Assembly: GCA_026023565.1 (NCBI GenBank)
Contig: JAPETS010000014.1
Location: forward strand, 310,001 to 374,000
Direction: 5' to 3'
DNA: 64,000 nucleotides
From: Cirrosporium novae-zelandiae
Lineage: Eukaryota
This document shows positions 3,592-38,245 of the stretch, piece by piece. Below the pieces are notes generated by a model. It did not search any database and was not told the origin of the DNA. It saw only the letters and a list, made by a program, of their open reading frames with translations. The position numbers and the translations under genes are program-made. The number at the start of each line of letters is the position of its first letter. Within the stretch, counting starts at the first letter, position 1.

Positions 3592-5649
3592 CTTGACAGC
3601 CGTGGGTCTTGAATTGACACAATGGTTTCGATTGGCTTTCAGTTTAGATATGTCAGGTTGTTGGTGTAACGATTACTGTTGCAGCCAGGAATCTATCAAG
3701 CACAATTCGGTAATAGGCTTCTCATATAATAGCAATGCGATCTTTCACACTCGTGTTGATTTTTTACCAACAACTTTCCATTGCAGGTGTTTGATAGATG
3801 GATACACAACTATGGCAATCCAAGATCATGGAAGATTGGAAGTGCAAGTTGCTGAGAATTGTTGATTGAGGAATGGATAGCTGTAAGTAAAAAAGAACCA
3901 GAAAGCGAAGCGACGGCAGGCTAATGTAGATAGGACGCTTGTGATAGGGTCTGTTCACCTGATAGATGTGAGGCGGAATACAAGGCGAAGCTAGATGGGG
4001 GAGGTTAACTGGCAATTGACAATGGATAATTGGTAATTGCAGTACTCTCGAGGCTTCCGATTTCGCAAAAAATAGACGGAGTAATATTGTCGTGGGCGTC
4101 CAGATGAGGTAGCGAAAGGGTTATAAAAAAAGAATGGAATAACAGGGGAAACAGTGAAGATTTATCGTAGGAGTTCCAATTCCTTGTCAGGACTCAATAG
4201 CGCATTGAGATTATCGAAGGAACATCAGAGGTAACCAGTTGAAGTAGAATCGAAGATTAGCGCATTGGGTGTTCAGACGTTCAAGACAAGCCGATTGTCC
4301 GTTGTTGCGTAGGTTTAGGTAGCGGTGGTAGCCTGCGTGTGTTGCATGTATCGTTTCGAGCTTGATGGCTTTCTCGGGTTGTCCGTGGGCCGTCAGATCC
4401 TAGGTTGGCGGGCAGGTTTTGGGGCGGTAGGAACAACTGGAACCCCGGTGACTGCAGTGGTCTTTTATTTTTTGGTGTCAATACGGATCAATTTCAATGA
4501 GTATGGGGGGATGCCAGTGGGAGGGAAAGCCGGCAATGATAGTCTATGGACAGTGCATGCAGAAAGGGACCTAGAGAAGGGGACCCAACCCAACATCCCA
4601 AGTTTCCAAGTTTCCAAGTTTCCAAGCTTTTTTTACATACAGGTATACTAAGCCCCGGTCGCGTAAAAAAGACATGACAAGCCTTTTACTGGAATTTACT
4701 AGCATTTACTAGCATTTAATGTCATCTGGCAGGGATCAGGGATACACTGCAGATATGACATTACTGTTTTCGGGTCTCCCGTTGCATCTAAAAGTCTATA
4801 AAGGGTTTAATGGGTTTCCGGTTATTCATTTAAACTCTATTAGTATTTTATCCGAGGCCCAACTAACAATCGTCCGTTTGGTTCACCTGTATTGCTGTAA
4901 TCTAATCCTACCTTGGATCGGCTAATCCTTTCTTTCGGTAAAGGTTGGTTCTCTTTCTCCCGGGGCTCTGGGAGAAGGACGGGAACATCATTAATCACTA
5001 ATTAACCAAAGTACAAGAACCATACACGTGTATACAATACAAAAAGGTGTTTTGTAATACAGTAGGAAAAGGTCCCTCCTTTTCTGTCTTCTTCTCTGTT
5101 TTTGGTGCTACCTGATAAGTTGGGTTGGAGAACAAACCTAAGAATTACGACGGATAGACACGTTATTGCACGTTTCTCTCTTTCTCTAGCTTCCCTAAGC
5201 TTTGGGAATTAATCATGGTACTAACCAAAGGGGATGTAGTGATGCAGGATTCAAATTTGAATTTGAATTTGTTGAATATCCAAAAGTATAAATATTAGTG
5301 TGCCGGGGTGCGTACGCTGATAAGAAAAGCCCCCAGTGACCCCCATGATTTCTTAAGTTCAGGCCTAACTTCTCGCCCACCTCGGCATTGATCCCATTTA
5401 AGCTCTGGCACTGAGGAATGGTGAGAAGTTAACGCGGACATCATTCCGCACCATACCTTAAACCTCTGTAACTTCCGTCTTGACTTCCACTAAAAATTAC
5501 TAACAAATACTAAAATTACTAAAATTACAACCTCCTGAAATTCCCAATACCATCAAATACGTCTAATACTTCTACTCCTCCAGAACAGGGCGCCGCTCCC
5601 GTTCATTGCTTAATTCCCGATGCCTCAGTTATCTAGCATTGGGGCCAAC

Positions 5650-10540: not shown

Positions 10541-12492
10541 GGTGAAGAAACCACATGGGATAATCTATATTATTTTTTTTAACTTCCGAACAGTCGCTAG
10601 TGTTAGTTTTGACTCAAAAAACATAACAGACAATATGAAGCAAAAGTGCGTAACGAAATATCGACTAAAGGTCTTGATTGCCTTACCCCAGTGGTTCTAC
10701 CAACTGAATTCCTAAGTAGGTATTCACCCTTGCCTTGGTTATTATTCTGCCTACTCTATTCTGACATTTTTTTTTGCCAGTTACGAGAGTATTCCACATC
10801 CTCATCACACCCACAGACAAATATTACCATAGTACCATACACATATCCTCCAACCTACAAAGCCATTCCCAAGTTCCACTCATCAAGACACCAATATATA
10901 GCTACAGAAGTCGTTACTCAAGCAAACGTTTTCTTAAACAGCATCGCCCCCTTCCCCCTGCGGCCAAGGACAGCACAAGAAAGAAAGAAGGAAGATAAAT
11001 CACACACCCATATATTCTCCTTGGAGGAGATGAGAGATAAGAGATAGAAAGGCTAAGAAGGATAAAGCGACTTGACCAATTTGATACTTTGATACTTAGG
11101 CATGGAAGGATATTCAGCAATCAAGCAAACTTCCCTAAGCAAGAAAAAAATGGGGGAGGGTATTCATATTCTTCTCCCTACAGAAGTTGCGTTGCGTTTC
11201 GTTTCATTCCGTTCCCATCCAGTTTAGTCCGGCAGGATGATGATGATTTATTTTTATTGTCCGTATGTCGCTTCTAAGCTATGGCAGACATATGCAACAT
11301 GTACATGTACCTATGTAAGTAAAGCTAATAATGTTATATATCTAGGTATCTAATATTTGACAGTACACATACATATAGATAGATAGATAAATATGCATAT
11401 ACATATAACAATATCAGTATCCAAAATTTTTTTCCCAACACCCATCACAATCATCACCATCAAACCCCCCCACACCCCCATGCCCCCATACTTCCCGTGG
11501 ACACTTACCAAGCACCTACCCACCTACCTATCCACCCCCCTACTACCATCAGCACTCCCCTTTCCCACACTTTCCCACAAAGCATTTATTTCTCACCTTG
11601 TTACGTCCACCGAGTACGGGTTACGAGTACTGGGTACCTACCTACCTATCCCTAGTTAATGGACGTATATTAGTGAATAGTTGAGGTATGTTGTAGAAAG
11701 AACGAGGAAGATGGAGAGGGAAGGGGAAGGGGAGGGTCTCTGAGGATGAGGAATAAAAAAAAGGGACAGGGGGGGAGGGTTGCATGTGAGTGGATATGTT
11801 AGTTATTAGTTATTAAGCTTTTTTTTTTCTTTTCTTCTCTTGAATTGGAGTTGCACATAGTTGCGTTACATTGAATAAGAAAAAATAGTAATTAAATAGA
11901 TCTAGAACTTTGATTTTTTTAATCCGTAGCAGCAGTGGTGGTAGTGATGGTAGCCATCTCCACATAAAACTAAAAAAAAGGTTTTTGCTCTACTAATAAG
12001 TAGGAAGGGTTTTTTTTTCTTTCTCCCCTTCCACTTTCAAAATAAATACATGAAGGAAAAGTGAAAAGAAACAAAAAAAAAATTCCCTACTGTTGTCGTC
12101 GTCGTCTTCATCTTCATTTATTTTCTTCTTTCCCCTATACGATTCGAGTTTTTTCTATTGACAGCTTCTCGTCCCCCCCCTTGGGGCTTGGAAACCTTAC
12201 CTCATTGATATATAATTGCCCCCAGCTACCCCCCCCCCCCCATTCAATTGTGGGTACAAGCTTTGATCACTGAATGGTACTTATCCGCCTCGACTCTCTC
12301 TCCCTTGTGTCTATTTCATCATCCCATTCCAAAGACGTCGCCTGCCTTTCCGATCCCGTTGCTGTTTGATCCCGTAATCCAGTTCCATACCCATCAGAAG
12401 CGCCTCTAGAAGCCATCATACAACCGTAAATCCTCAATAAAAAACATTTATCCTTAGACCTTTTTAATTAATGAGGGTATGTCTTGATATGT

Positions 12493-28160: not shown

Positions 28161-29152
28161 TTACTCTGTTAATGTTTGGACAATGGAGAGTCTGGATGAA
28201 GGCCTGTTAATAGATCTTCGATAGTGAACGGGACGAGTTGCCTCCTTTACTTCCAGAGTGTCATCCTCCATCACATCGTCTACATTATCTTCTAAAATCC
28301 TCTCAACATCCTTCGATCCTCGAAATGAGAGACCGTTTAGTGAAGGCAAAGGGCCACCAGGCCCCTCGTCTAGATAAACCCCACCACCGCCATTCGCCAG
28401 TCCCTCAAAAACCCAGGTTCCGCATGCTTTGTAGAACTTGAACGCTCGGCCGTTGACTGCTTTCTGGAATGAAGAGCCGTGAAGACGGGTTAGAAGTGAT
28501 GAGGGCCCTTCGTACCAGATGGGATCGATATGAGTGAGCGCTTCGGCTAAGATGGTACGTAGGTGAATAGTGTCGCGGCGGAGGTTCTTTGGGGGTGTGA
28601 AGATGAGCCATAGGGATACTTCTGGGGGTGTAGTGTTGGGTGGGGCTGGTGCATTAAAGTAGTTTAGATGGTGTAGTGATGGGAGCTGGGTTGATAATGC
28701 CTGGGAGTCGATATTAGGGGTTATAGGTTGCTCTTGGTTATGATATTTCTTTTGTCTTGTCTGAGTCCCGATAGTTGAACTATTATTCTGACCAACTGCA
28801 AGAGAAGTAGCAAGTAACTTAGAAGGCACCAGTTCTTCAATCTGGTGTCGTGGATTAGGTTCTTTGGCGGTTGATGGAGAGTTCCAAGGCCGCAAATTGA
28901 TTTGTCGAATGCTATCCTCTGGCCCATCATTCCACTCCTCTAGTGGTGCAAATAATTCTTCAGATAATTTTGGGTATTCAGACTCATTATCGGAAGACTT
29001 TGCGTGCTACAAATTATTTAGTAGAAAATATATAAGGTCAGGTATGTAATAATTACCTTGCTCTGGTTCTGCCAGCCGGGCTTGCTACTCTTAATATTCC
29101 AAGTAGAATTGGGGTTGAGTTCTTGCAATGGACAACGCAATTCGCTGTTCAT
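28161..29152 (-). CDS. Hypothetical protein (~310 aa), 2 exons, divergent from the HeLo gene
   Basis: MNSELRCPLQELNPN..NQSK is joined by a ~50-nt GTAATT..TTGTAG intron (~29056-29007) to an open frame continuous with ORF 28161-28895. No family recognised. Confidence 0.55.
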
Positions 29153-30413
29153 CGACGGAATCGTGATAAGCGGCCGCGAATGAAGGGTCCTGGAGGGATT
29201 CCACAATAAGAGTCAATCGGTTGGAGCTTTGTCTTCTAAAAGCAACAAGGCACATTGCTACTCGATCAAGCCGTAGGCTTTGGGTAAGTCGGGCTTCGTC
29301 GTCGCTATATAGAAATAGTATTACAAGGCGTAATGGTTATTGTAAAAATTTCAGTGTTTTGTTATAGAATTAGAGTTAATGTTCATCACAAAGGATATAG
29401 AGAAAGTGTTCAAGGCCTCCATCTCGAAATAAGAAGGATAGAAAGAAATAGAAAGAAATAGGCAAAGCTAGGTTGAATTCCTGAAGGAGGGAGCCAATCT
29501 GGTCTCGAAGGAGAATCCAATCCGCCAAACGGATGGTCAGCTTTGTTGTCAAGCAGATTGCAATCCTAAGAAAGCCAGTGAGGTATCATCTTCCTATCAG
29601 AAGCAAATGATACCCTGCCTACAGTTAGCTAAGAGCCACTTTTCTTGATTTTCTGTTGGAAGTGATGGATGATAATAGGGATGAAGCGCTTCCTGATTAG
29701 GTATTGGAAGAACACCTGGTAAATTGTTATATTGAAATGTCTACAAATCAGAAGAGAGACATGAAAGTTCGCGACGACCGCGTCGTTTCGTGAATATCAC
29801 TAATCTACTTTGGGAGTAGTCTATTGCACTACACGGTGCGTGTCGCGTTCGTGTGAGGCAGATAATCCTTGGCAAGGCGGAGCTGAATCTCCCGATCACA
29901 TACCCTCCTACACCCTTTTCACGCAATTGTTGTTTTATCTTACTAAATGCACTTCTCCACCTCATCTGCATCTATCAATAAGGAATTAGGATTAAACGCT
30001 TTATTTTGGTATGGAGACAACATTAAGACCTGATTTAGAAATATGATTCTCTCTCGTTGTGTCTCCAGCCTTAGATATGCTCATTTGTTGGTCGGAAAGT
30101 ATATACTTTATCTACCCGCTGGCGTTCTTGTATCGCCTACCGGGCAATTAACTTAGAAAGGGGCATCGGCGGCAATGACTTATACCCCTCTATTGCATCT
30201 ATGATTAGCGATTATTTCTCCTCAGGTGGAATATCAAGTATAAAACTGACTCTTTTATTCCTCCATCATGTATAATACTCTAATACTCTGTCTTCCTAGT
30301 CAAAACCCAAGTCTTCTTTAAATTTTTAGCATGCTTGTTATGAATTGACGTATTTTATGATTTTCCATTAACCGAATACAATCTAAAATTTCAACATTCT
30401 CCAGCTTTCAACT

Positions 30414-31193
30414 ATGGAGTCAGCAAGGCTCGCTAGCCTTTTTGATAATGCTATCGACAGCTTCGAATATGTCTACCTTGGCCGGACCTTCAACAAAAAC
30501 TTTCAAATAAGTTTACTTCAGCTTGATATCACGAGATTACGGCTCTCGCGATGGGGCCAATCTATAGGATTAAGCCCCAATCTAGATAATGCAAATGTTC
30601 TGGATCGGGGTGTGGTACCAAGAGAGCTTGTGAAAAGGTCCGAGATGAAACTTGGCCAAATTATGGAACTCTTTACCGATACTGAAAGGAGATGTGCAAA
30701 GGTCAATGGCAAGGCCCCTGACAACACGAACCTACTAGTATGCAATACGGAAACCGACTTGGACTCTGTGGGAGCATCACTCCACCACAAGATACGTGAC
30801 CACTCAATCAAACGGCAGAACGGAGCTCCGTTATCGAAAAAAACTGGATGGGCCTTATACGAGATTAATCAGTTCAGGAGGATGGTTAAGGACCTCGGTG
30901 GTCTAATCAGTGATTTAGAAGAGCTCTTTCCAGCTGCGCAGCCATTTCGAAGTGAACTTTGTGACATCGAAATTTCGGAAATCGGTACAGGTGACTGCCT
31001 TCGACTTTTGAAAGAAATTGTTGCCGATCAAGATTGGAATTTGGAGGTTGCTATTTCAAAGGCCATAAAAAACCGCGAGGGTGGTCCGTTGAATGTGACT
31101 TTTTCAGGAAACAACAATCATGGTCTCCAAGTCGGATATAATTACGGCACGATGAGTAACCTGCGTTGGGGGGGTGCTGGCCTATCAGGATAG
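30414..31193 (+). CDS. HeLo (HET-s N-terminal, prion-inhibition/propagation) domain protein with C-terminal PP-type amyloid motif
   Basis: LASLFDNAIDSFEYVYLGRTF..LQLDITRLRLSRWG and KKTGWALYE..F..MVKDL..LISDLEELFPA match the HeLo pattern. The tail NVTFSGNNNHGLQVGYNYGTMSNLRWG fits the NxGxQxGxN PP motif. Intronless, 259 aa. Confidence 0.9.
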   Translation: MESARLASLFDNAIDSFEYVYLGRTFNKNFQISLLQLDITRLRLSRWGQSIGLSPNLDNANVLDRGVVPRELVKRSEMKLGQIMELFTDTERRCAKVNGKAPDNTNLLVCNTETDLDSVGASLHHKIRDHSIKRQNGAPLSKKTGWALYEINQFRRMVKDLGGLISDLEELFPAAQPFRSELCDIEISEIGTGDCLRLLKEIVADQDWNLEVAISKAIKNREGGPLNVTFSGNNNHGLQVGYNYGTMSNLRWGGAGLSG

Positions 31194-32049
31194 CTAAGTT
31201 GGGAGATCCGATCCACCCAAGTTCGTTATCTTTTCACATATCTGGATTGACGGTCTTTCGGATGCGGCTAGTTGAGCGGTTGATTTAGCTAAACAGTCTA
31301 TTTTATTTTTAGAATGTAAAGATGGCATAAATCATTCGACAACCTAGCAGCAATACCAAAGACAACACTCTACTCTATCATGCAACATAGAAATGGTAAA
31401 TTCTCATTGCCTTTCTCAATATGTCATGTTATAACAAGCCCGTTATGCTGTAGGATAAAATAAGTATATGAAGTTAAAGACATCAACCAAGTTTATAGCA
31501 TTTAGATTGCTCAGCTGAGGCTAACGTTATATCAGACTATCATAGCACGCCCGAAATTACTTGGCCATCTCTTGCCATACATGAGAACTTATTAACTTCC
31601 ATATAGATGAAATACTGAATGCCTTGGGTAACTTGGATGCCTTTATCCTAACCAGGATTAACGCATAGAAAGTCATTCAGTCCAGGGAGGTCCCAGCGAA
31701 CAATTACCAACCTAAATTTTCCGACTATGTATGCCGCTATTATCATGATGAAGTTGGCAAAGTTTGTGATAAGTGTGCCTGATGGGGTACTCTCGCATTC
31801 ATTAAACCCATTGAGAATACAGTATGTCAATCCCAAGACCAGATCCCTAAGCACTCATTTACGACCCTTCGAAAGAGCCCCTAGTTATGACTTAGTTGGT
31901 ACTACTTGCTTCTCCGAAGTATCAAAGAATATAAGAAGATAGATGTCTGGGTCGGTTTTATTTTGATTATTAGGAAATAATCTTTCTGGGAGATCTAAGG
32001 ATAATATGAATAAGAGAAATAGTATGGGTAAAGCAACGACATGACTGTT

Positions 32050-35747: not shown

Positions 35748-38245
35748 ATGGCTTGCACGTCTTTCATGAAATCAACAGCCTCTTGCTCTCGTCCCGATAG
35801 AAACAAGGCAATTCCCAACTTCCATGAGATCATAAAAGTCAATGATCATTAACTGTTAAACAGGAGACCAATAAATTGCGATATGACCATGTTGACCTGT
35901 CTGCAGTGGACCTCCATTGTTCTCATAACCTAGCATTTATCAAATCTCGCGACCACGAAGATAGTGATACCCACAATACGAGTCATCCAGAAAGGTTTTC
36001 GCCTGTGAAGATCATATTCTATCCAGCGACTACAAAGAGCAACATAAATCGTATAAAAGAGTCTGGCATCAAATCCAACCTAGCTAGTACGGATGATAAC
36101 CCCAGACACCTTCAAGGCACCTCTTCGGCCATACCCACAAAGCCTCAAGCCTCTCCGGTCGGAACTGATGCTGTTGATATACACAGTGGGGATGATGACA
36201 GCTTCTCTCAGTACTTTCTAGATCTTGAAGAAGATATCCTCAATTATCTAGAAAATGTAATGGGGATTGAAGCCAAGATTTTGCAGCGCTACCCAGCTGG
36301 GACAGAGACCTTTGAGAGAGACACTGGCCAGCAATATCCTTGGACATTACTTGAAGACATCAGCTTTAAATGTATGGAAAACCTGAGAAAGGTTCGAGAT
36401 GAGGTTCCATGTTTTAATATACCTAAAATACAAAAACCGGACCAAGAAAGCGAAAGCTACTGGAAAATTCCTATTGCAAGGCTCGAAGGTTTCGATACCT
36501 ACCGTATCGAAAACCTAGCCTCGATTCAAGATAGCGTTCTAAAGGTACATGTGGCTGTTATGGGAGAACTCCTTCAAAGGAGGGGGAACCAAGGAGCTGC
36601 TACCATATCATTGAAAAATGTCAACATTGACTGTATACAGAGCCACACCTTGAAAGAAGACAAAATCCTACAATCTCATGTGACAATTCGTAAAGAGCTT
36701 AGCCAACGAAACAAAAACCATTCCACTGCTCCCTTTACTCGGGTTGAAAACGACAATACTGAACGTCTAGAAAGTCTGGCCCAGGTACAAGATAAAGCAT
36801 TGCAGTCTCATTTGAATACGGTTAGGGGACTAGACCAAAGGAACGAAAAGAATTACACGATATTCTCTACACGGCTTAGAAGTAACAACATCGAACGTCT
36901 ACATGACGTAATTTTTATTAGGCACGAACAAATAAGAGGGTTTTCTTCAGAAAAGGTGGACACTCAGTCGAGCTATCAGAAGAACGATGAAAGGTATAAA
37001 GAACTTCGCGAAGAGAGCATGTCGCCTATCAAAGTAGCAAGCCTGCAGAGCAGGCGGGCCAAACAGTCTCTTGCAACCATTCAAACTACAAATGACAAGA
37101 ACAAAATCTTTCCTCCAAGCCTCGACGATGGCTCTATGCTAGACTCCTCTATCTGTCTTTCAGAATCCGACTCCACCTCCAAAAGCACCGATGAGAATCT
37201 CAGTGCCGACAATGACTTGTACCTAAATATCGGCATACTGCACGAATTTGATTTGGAAGAGGATGACTGTTTAGAAAGTTCATTCCTACCATCTAATCCA
37301 CATACCTCCATCCCGCCTCCACCGTCTAAGAAGTGCACATCTACCAAGTTGCATTCCAACACCACATCCACTGAGGAAGTAGAGAGTTCTCCCGACATCC
37401 AACCACCCCCACCGTCATCGTCACCAAGAACCACCTCAATATTTCCATCTCACAGGGAAACCTCCCTCGATACATCCACAACCTCCACCACCACCTCTTC
37501 TTCCATCCAACAGAACGAAAATATCTCAGAAATTTTTCCACAACATCTACAACCCGTTATCATCATCATCTGCAACCCCTTCAAACCCAAAGATCTTCTT
37601 GTTTCCCTCAACTCCAACACCGAGAAGCCAAAAGGGCCTCCCTGCCAATCCCGATTACAAACAGAATCATCCTCGTCCGACAACTCGAACCCTACGCCCC
37701 TCTCCACCCACAACAGCAAAGTAAGAGCCCCCTTAAAGCTTCCCATTGTATCCCCACCCACCAAGATCCGCCCACCACCCGAAGCCAACAAGCATAAGTA
37801 CTCACCCAATCCCAAACTTAACCCCAGGTATGAAACCCTCGACGCCATCATGGCAAGAATTGAGACCCTAAGCCAGAAGCTTCGTTCCGATTCTCTCCCT
37901 ACCGCAAAAGAGTACCAGTTACCTTCCGCAAACTCACCATCGCCCTCCAAGAGAAAATCGCCCTCCACATGTCTCGAAGACACGACTCTCGTGCCCTCAT
38001 CGCCACCATCACCACCATCACCGCTCACATCGCTCACATCGCCACCCACATCACCAAAACGAACATTCTCCCCCCCCTCAACCCCTCCAATCTCTCTAAC
38101 CCCAACTAAAACAACAACGACACACACTAAATACATCCCAGGATCAAATTCATACCCGAACCCAACCCCATGGTTCTACGAAATACTATTCCTATTCCCC
38201 TTTTTCATAATCTTCCTCCGCGATATGCTCTCCACCGCAGTCTGA
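35748..38245 (+). CDS. Orphan ~810-aa protein: ~43-aa internal repeats, long S/T/P-rich region, C-terminal hydrophobic anchor
   Basis: 2.37 kb stop-free ORF (35864-38245). The likely first exon starts at ATG 35748 and is joined via a GC-AG intron 35808-35863. C-terminus WFYEILFLFPFFIIFL. Confidence 0.65.

Follow-up and report, generated by a model that had tools for sequence, protein, structure and literature searches.

The window analysed here, a stretch of 64,000 nucleotides from Cirrosporium novae-zelandiae, contains a gene whose product joins a HeLo domain to a single PP motif, with no NLR gene beside it. This raises the question whether such an orphan still encodes a cell-death effector, has become a protein of the HET-s type or is on its way to being lost. 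The gene and its two domains are located as follows.

30414..31193, + strand: HeLo-PP coding sequence, a single exon of 259 codons plus stop (open reading frame list; Pfam HeLo and Ses_B/PP matches).
30429..31010, + strand: HeLo domain (Pfam envelope, residues 6-199), the helical body continuing to about residue 222.
31092..31172, + strand: PP amyloid-signalling motif and conserved tail (residues 227-253; NxGxQxGxN core at 31116-31142; Pfam PF17046).

Profile search of the 259-residue protein bore out the assignment of its N-terminal domain to HeLo: PF14479 matched with an E-value of 3.1e-37 (128.8 bits, gathering cut-off 23.2). The closest solved structures in a sequence search of the PDB were the N-terminal domains of HET-s and HET-S (2wvn_A, E 3.9e-27; 2wvo_A, 5.6e-27; 2wvq_A, 6e-26). 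The AlphaFold2 model, computed on an alignment with 30 HeLo-PP relatives (alignment A1), had a mean pLDDT of 77.2 and a pTM of 0.76 and was all-helical up to residue 222; the last HeLo helix comprises residues 208-222, and the PP motif lies C-terminal to it. When the model was searched with Foldseek, the four best matches were HET-s/HET-S entries (2wvn, 2wvo, 2wvq; E 9e-11 to 5e-10, TM 0.70-0.88), and the fifth-ranked match had an E-value of 0.28. An independently assembled Logan contig of a public sequencing run (X1), which is possibly derived from the source sample itself, showed no difference from the window over 29462-31600. Two other runs of the same study (X2, X3) gave no match to the locus at 80% likeness, which is no proof of absence. 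No RNA data set turned up for this stretch, which says nothing for or against expression. The gene is real, and it is homologous to the HeLo and PP families.

The C-terminal motif was also recovered. PF17046 (Ses_B), which is given as 'PP (misnamed SesB)' in PMC12261475, matched residues 227-248 (nt 31092-31157) with an E-value of 2.1e-10 and 40.7 bits, above its cut-off of 23.2. [quoted passage not shown] Written as a degenerate DNA pattern, NxGxQxGxN occurs once in the window (0.07 expected), and at least one match appeared in 7 of 100 shuffles. All nine of the tail columns that are conserved in at least 90% of the relatives are kept (9/9). The tail is disordered in the AlphaFold2 model, with pLDDT below 50 over residues 240-259. 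A search with tail residues 216-259 against longer proteins returned three candidates, none of which scored; this search is weak, as the method needs shared 5-mers. HELLP(214-271) and PNT1(1-31) are reported to be prion-forming in Podospora (PMC7885112).

The sequence-only reading had treated the combination of HeLo with a single PP motif as unusual, but the architecture is already known. Daskalov et al. (2012) based their definition of the PP motif on HeLo proteins from two species of Arthroderma, the genes of which adjoin NB-ARC/TPR STAND genes (PMC3321046). A large protein collection with precomputed annotation yielded 105 homologues other than the query itself (E 1e-3 or lower), 47 of which carry both PF14479 and PF17046. 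The strict PP core pattern was present in 29 of 106 proteins (query included), and 39 of 106 had a G-x-Q-x-G core somewhere in their final 70 residues. Named homologues come from the lichen-forming genera Toensbergia, Xanthocarpia, Gyalolechia, Flavoplaca and Dirinaria, from Coniosporium and from many Dothideomycetes; the highest non-self identity was 51-53%. Some close homologues (P0014, P0070, P0078, P0082, P0084, P0098, P0100, P0102) end in Asn/Gly/Gln-rich tails of a non-PP type; here the same effector domain may have acquired other amyloid signalling motifs by exchange.

A receptor gene was sought throughout the window and above all upstream of the HeLo-PP gene.

29007..30413, no strand: upstream intergenic region, empty here; 14 of 17 assessable relatives have the start of a divergent PP-bearing NLR gene at this place.

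Neither a second PP-like pattern nor a Walker A/P-loop motif (G..G.GK[ST]) was present in the six frames of the 64-kb window. The 36 largest of its 115 stop-to-stop open reading frames of at least 90 aa had no Pfam match to NACHT, NB-ARC or TPR; their matches were to mitochondrial carrier, DUF7587, GH35, DENN, zf-HIT/BCD1, GNAT, a fungal-rhodopsin fragment and amino-acid permease. Closer to the gene, 145 peptides of at least 24 aa, from 27.2-33.5 kb but outside the gene itself, gave no match to Ses_B, NACHT, NB-ARC or TPR at E-values up to 1. As a positive control, the PF17046 model was run on related loci, where it found 12 of 12 NLR-side PP motifs at E-values up to 0.021, nine of them above the gathering score. 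No NLR relic was detected by tblastn with 12 NLR open reading frames of related loci, nothing in the window scoring better than E 0.46. By motif, Pfam and tblastn alike, the claim that no PP-bearing NLR lies within about 30 kb on either side held for the whole 64 kb. A neighbouring NLR gene degraded by RIP was ruled out, since between 20 and 42 kb TpA/ApT is about 0.8 and (CpA+TpG)/(ApC+GpT) about 1.2, and no relic came up with tblastn.

The nearest sizeable upstream open reading frame (28164-29006, - strand, 281 aa) could be assigned to no Pfam family, gave no usable Atlas match and is not NLR-like. The largest one in the window (35846-38242, + strand, 799 aa) is Ser/Thr/Pro-rich and likewise has no Pfam family. 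No flanking genes are common to the window and the paired loci at E 1e-4; therefore deletion of the NLR gene and relocation of the HeLo-PP gene are both possible.

What the normal neighbourhood of such a gene looks like was established from metagenome contigs, a scan of which yielded 52 loci with HeLo relatives. We regarded as assessable the 17 loci in which the HeLo gene carries a PP tail itself and is preceded by 300 bp of sequence or more. Fourteen of these (L001, 2, 4, 7, 11-16, 40, 41, 42, 46) have a PP motif on the other strand, 228-723 bp upstream. The remaining three, L005, L009 and L010 (the last two being the same sequence), have no upstream PP motif, and their HeLo N-termini are normal. 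The upstream PP motif is also present in L035, 36, 37 and 52, whose own tail is cut by the contig end. Loci with too little upstream sequence (L006, 8, 29, 38, 44) were left out, and the rest of the 52 are HeLo relatives without a PP tail. DUF7779 was found in all 11 upstream partner open reading frames that were scanned and TPR_10/TPR_12 in eight, the other three being cut by contig ends; the nucleotide-binding module of these 11 was represented in Pfam only by sub-threshold NACHT matches, in two of them.

The partner-less state is thus a minority among the relatives, and it has precedent. Among published HET-s-type effectors only 98 of 155 adjoin an NLR gene, 57 being unlinked, and the clustering is described as 'common but not systematic' (PMC4518210). 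The description of the gene as an orphan therefore stands as far as the lack of an NLR in cis is concerned, but it does not mark a new state, because 3 of 17 related loci and 57 of 155 published effectors share it.

The related loci offered some further observations. In the partner-less L009 and L010 the HeLo-PP gene is followed, at a distance of about 2.4 kb, by a TPR_10/TPR_12 open reading frame without a detectable PP motif (10599-11573, + strand, in L009), which may represent a receptor that was rearranged or lacks the motif. A number of HeLo relatives without a PP tail (L003, L018-L020, L023-L028, L032, L034, L045; about 230-250 aa) stand head-to-head with NLR genes of another type, which have a G-T/S-GKST P-loop and of which three scanned open reading frames match NPHP3_N and NACHT. 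One HeLo clade appears to be wired to two receptor classes. DDE_1 (Tc5/pogo-type) transposase open reading frames lie directly 3′ of HeLo-PP genes in L007 (2735-4612, + strand) and L013 (1549-3168, + strand), and in L007 the transposase is followed by another NLR-type PP motif (4867-4959, + strand). This suggests that mobile elements reshuffle HeLo-PP clusters.

The HeLo domain had been described as intact and canonical. Alignment with its relatives contradicted this at the N-terminus.

30414..30470, + strand: shortened N-terminal helix (residues 1-19), about seven residues missing between residues 4 and 5 (nt 30425/30426; alignment A1).

In alignment A1 the first residues of the window protein align with the family start, whereas about seven residues of a Gly-rich hydrophobic segment are absent before a conserved Phe. 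The number of residues ahead of this Phe is 10 in the window protein as opposed to 14-18 or more, mostly hydrophobic, in 93 homologues in which the segment was detected by this anchor. Together with six homologues judged by eye, the hydrophobic segment was seen in 99 of 105. The N-terminus of the other six could not be read, four being fragments and two having long (mispredicted) 5′ extensions. The 10-residue polar version of the window protein occurred in none of the 105 homologues. Among the 52 related loci the canonical HeLo start was found at 48, the other four being unreadable. Eight of 22 conserved N-terminal columns are changed in the window protein, and its Pfam HeLo match leaves out the first 8 of the 205 profile positions. 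What the sequence-only reading missed is an in-frame loss of about seven residues at the hydrophobic start of the predicted membrane-insertion helix.

The loss is reflected in hydropathy, although this is only a rough guide: over the first 45 residues the highest-scoring Kyte-Doolittle window of 19 residues reached 0.44, compared with 1.39-1.81 (median 1.61) in the 30 relatives. Pore-forming effectors of the HeLo class are characterized by a hydrophobic stretch of some 30 residues at the N-terminus that is predicted to cross the membrane (Seuring 2012); the window protein does not have one. In HET-S, residues 1 to about 34 make up the expelled, liposome-protected segment that is predicted to span the membrane (PMC3531502). 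The D23A and F25S substitutions remove the predicted transmembrane helix of HET-S and make the protein HET-s-like, and such single substitutions abolish toxicity, according to the same source. These point-mutant rules cannot be transferred one-to-one, because in the alignments the position equivalent to HET-S residue 23 is normally Asp or Glu in the HeLo-PP family. AlphaFold2 still predicts a helix over residues 2-19 (pLDDT about 83-85), and in this model the residual helix might be able to enter membranes or to oligomerise. An upstream exon or another start codon supplying the hydrophobic segment was ruled out, there being no candidate exon within 3 kb upstream.

Relatives with a similarly reduced N-terminus were looked for with phmmer among 1.84 billion cluster representatives. 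The search returned 1019 proteins at E 1e-3 or better, and the best 150 of these were inspected. Short or polar N-termini were found among these 150 in P0233, P0263, P0248, P0290 and P0365, so the window gene is not unique in kind. P0233 and P0263 are JGI proteins from short contigs and have no initial Met, P0248 is from NCBI, P0290 is from Lasiodiplodia theobromae and has three cluster members from separate records, and P0365 is from Ampelomyces quisqualis. The PP core is kept in P0233, whereas P0248 has lost the G-x-Q-x-G. In P0233 the PP tail is followed by additional tandem G-x-Q-x-G-like units, which look like a repeat expansion of the amyloid core.

In a quick tree of 52 rows the window protein, P0233 and P0248 fell into one clade of eight rows (SH-aLRT 95) together with five canonical proteins. 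Their end branches (0.75, 0.56 and 0.96, respectively) were longer than those of the canonical clade members (0.13-0.39). The short-N label required seven changes on this tree, at least five of them forced by the starred branches. A more careful tree of 23 rows gave no resolved placement of the window protein. A single origin of the window protein, P0233 and P0248 was not rejected (p-AU 0.337), and it had no support in the bootstrap (0 of 200 trees). Our literature searches brought up no description of naturally N-terminally truncated HeLo or HeLo-PP effectors.

The changes in the window protein extend beyond the N-terminus. Of 94 columns that at least 90% of the relatives share, 26 are altered in it; each of the 30 relatives themselves is altered at 1-9 of 84-90. 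All 26 fall among the 85 conserved columns of the body and none among the 9 of the tail, a modest contrast (Fisher p 0.059). A maximum-likelihood tree gave the window protein an end branch of 0.88, where the median was 0.18, and flagged no other branch as long. The neighbouring GH35 beta-galactosidase deviates at 10 of 149 conserved columns; its own 30 relatives have a median of 2.7% and a maximum of 7.9%, so that it lies within their range and the excess divergence is specific to the HeLo gene. The best matches of the GH35 protein (Teloschistes, Pleopsidium, Caloplaca) are 54-61% identical; by these the organism is probably an ascomycete of the lichen type, and it has no close sequenced relative. 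Neutral simulations, in which only substitutions were introduced, left the coding sequence free of stop codons in 2%, 5.75% and 12.75% of runs at 27.7%, 20% and 15% of residues changed (400 runs each). Long neutral decay is unlikely, because simulated coding sequences so rarely stayed open. Distant HeLo-PP representatives with normal N-termini (n=19), scored on the columns conserved in alignment A1, had deviations of 0.04-0.46 with a median of 0.31; the window protein scored 0.30. As these representatives deviate equally, divergence alone is no proof of acceleration, and the long branch may in part reflect a distinct lineage.

The reading that we prefer, tentatively and with slightly less than even confidence, is that the window gene encodes an amyloid-competent HeLo-PP derivative which has lost its receptor in cis and whose membrane insertion is impaired, analogously to HET-s. 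The divergent PP-bearing STAND/TPR receptor gene that normally lies a few hundred bp upstream would have been lost, and an in-frame deletion has taken out about seven residues of the hydrophobic segment whose counterpart in HET-S inserts into the membrane. [quoted passage not shown] The disordered PP tail could then be templated into a cross-beta fold by an unlinked PP-NLR, by another PP protein or by its own prion form, and the refolded HeLo domain would no longer expose a segment spanning the bilayer. The outcome would be aggregation without lysis, or with much weaker lysis, as in HET-s relative to HET-S. The prion or regulatory role that we infer might be that of a prion-competent non-lytic derivative or of a sink for PP signalling. 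The protein had earlier been proposed as a candidate prion; this stays possible, because the membrane-insertion segment of HeLo is truncated and inactivation of that region lets HET-s propagate (PMC7885112).

It is also conceivable, if rather unlikely, that the gene is a functional cell-death effector activated in trans, an unlinked PP-NLR templating its tail and the shortened HeLo domain still damaging membranes. The intact reading frame and PP motif and the confidently predicted HeLo fold would fit this, and so would the three partner-less relatives with normal N-termini and the many published HET-s-type effectors without an adjacent NLR; moreover, several effectors may be served by one NLR (PMC5485727). 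Short N-termini can persist, as P0290 from Lasiodiplodia occurs in three cluster members from separate records. What speaks against continued lytic activity is the N-terminus of the window protein itself, with its hydropathy far below that of all 30 relatives and more than a third of its conserved columns altered, and the loss of HET-S toxicity upon single substitutions that remove the transmembrane helix. The same alterations, taken with those in the rest of the domain, the long end branch, the missing cis partner and the absence of any synteny with the paired loci, would be expected of a non-functional relic decaying under relaxed selection after loss of the NLR, with its frame not yet interrupted. 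Two clade-mates in the quick tree point the same way, P0248 having lost G-x-Q-x-G besides being short at the N-terminus and P0233 starting without Met. We nevertheless consider a relic improbable: the 259-codon frame is open, which neutral simulations with substitutions only seldom reproduced (2-13%), the conserved residues of the PP tail are complete, the deletion is in frame with the start codon kept, and there is no RIP signature. That the true gene has a normal N-terminus and the short one is an artefact of assembly or annotation could be argued from the fact that the sequence is known from one sample only, of which the supporting run X1 is possibly the source. The probability of this is very small, since the independently built contig is identical over the locus, the deletion is internal to a continuous open reading frame whose first residues align with the family start, and no exon that could replace them was found upstream.

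Under the preferred reading of a HET-s-like derivative the locus would bear on a broader matter. [Het-s] is so far the only natural prion known to have arisen from a fungal amyloid-signalling effector whose killing domain became inactive. Whether HET-s-like derived forms exist for other motifs is a question asked by Bardin et al. (2021), and HET-s-like PP derivatives, if true, would answer it. One could speculate that HeLo-PP proteins without the membrane-insertion segment (the window gene, P0233 and possibly others) are natural non-lytic, prion-competent HET-s-like derivatives, which may serve as prions or as dominant-negative buffers of PP-NLR signalling, or may be partners in allorecognition for an allele or paralogue of full length, and which arose once or repeatedly in lichen-forming and rock-inhabiting ascomycetes; as a general proposition we regard this as doubtful. 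An open, partner-less HeLo-PP gene with a complete PP motif and a lost helix start is in any case a concrete and cheaply testable candidate. If the gene is merely drifting, or is an orphan that is still lytic, the finding is an ordinary one, as the architecture and unlinked effectors have already been described.

Compared with known systems, the window gene lacks two canonical features of a signalosome, the adjacent NLR and the hydrophobic N-terminal segment. With the metazoan RHIM of RIPK1/RIPK3 it shares the G-x-Q-x-G core, the protein context (kinases) being unrelated. Homology between the PP and RHIM motifs has been proposed in the literature. Partial cross-seeding between the [pi] and [Rhim] prions is reported in PMC7885112. 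HELLP/PNT1 (and SBP) of Chaetomium globosum and Podospora anserina resemble the present case in having the PP motif at the C-terminus of the effector, and their PP regions, for which the N-terminus of the NLR acts as template, form the [pi] prion (PMC7885112). They differ in that the effector domain is HELL (HeLo-like, related to the MLKL 4HB) rather than HeLo, and in that the genes are clustered with the NLR.

The closest counterparts in architecture are the HeLo-PP/STAND-TPR pairs of Arthroderma otae and A. gypseum (PMC3321046), in which HeLo is likewise followed by one C-terminal PP motif. Their head-to-head pairing with a PP-bearing TPR STAND gene is seen in the relatives of the window gene, whereas the window gene itself has no adjacent STAND gene and its hydrophobic HeLo N-terminus is truncated. 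In this last respect it comes nearest to HET-s of Podospora anserina ([Het-s]), a HeLo protein with a compromised transmembrane-helix region and an amyloid-forming C-terminus, which in the window protein is a putative amyloid. In HET-s this combination is reported to permit prion propagation without self-killing (PMC3531502, PMC7885112). HET-s differs in that it has a two-repeat prion-forming domain, was inactivated by point changes and not by a deletion, and is encoded by an allele of het-S adjoining nwd2.
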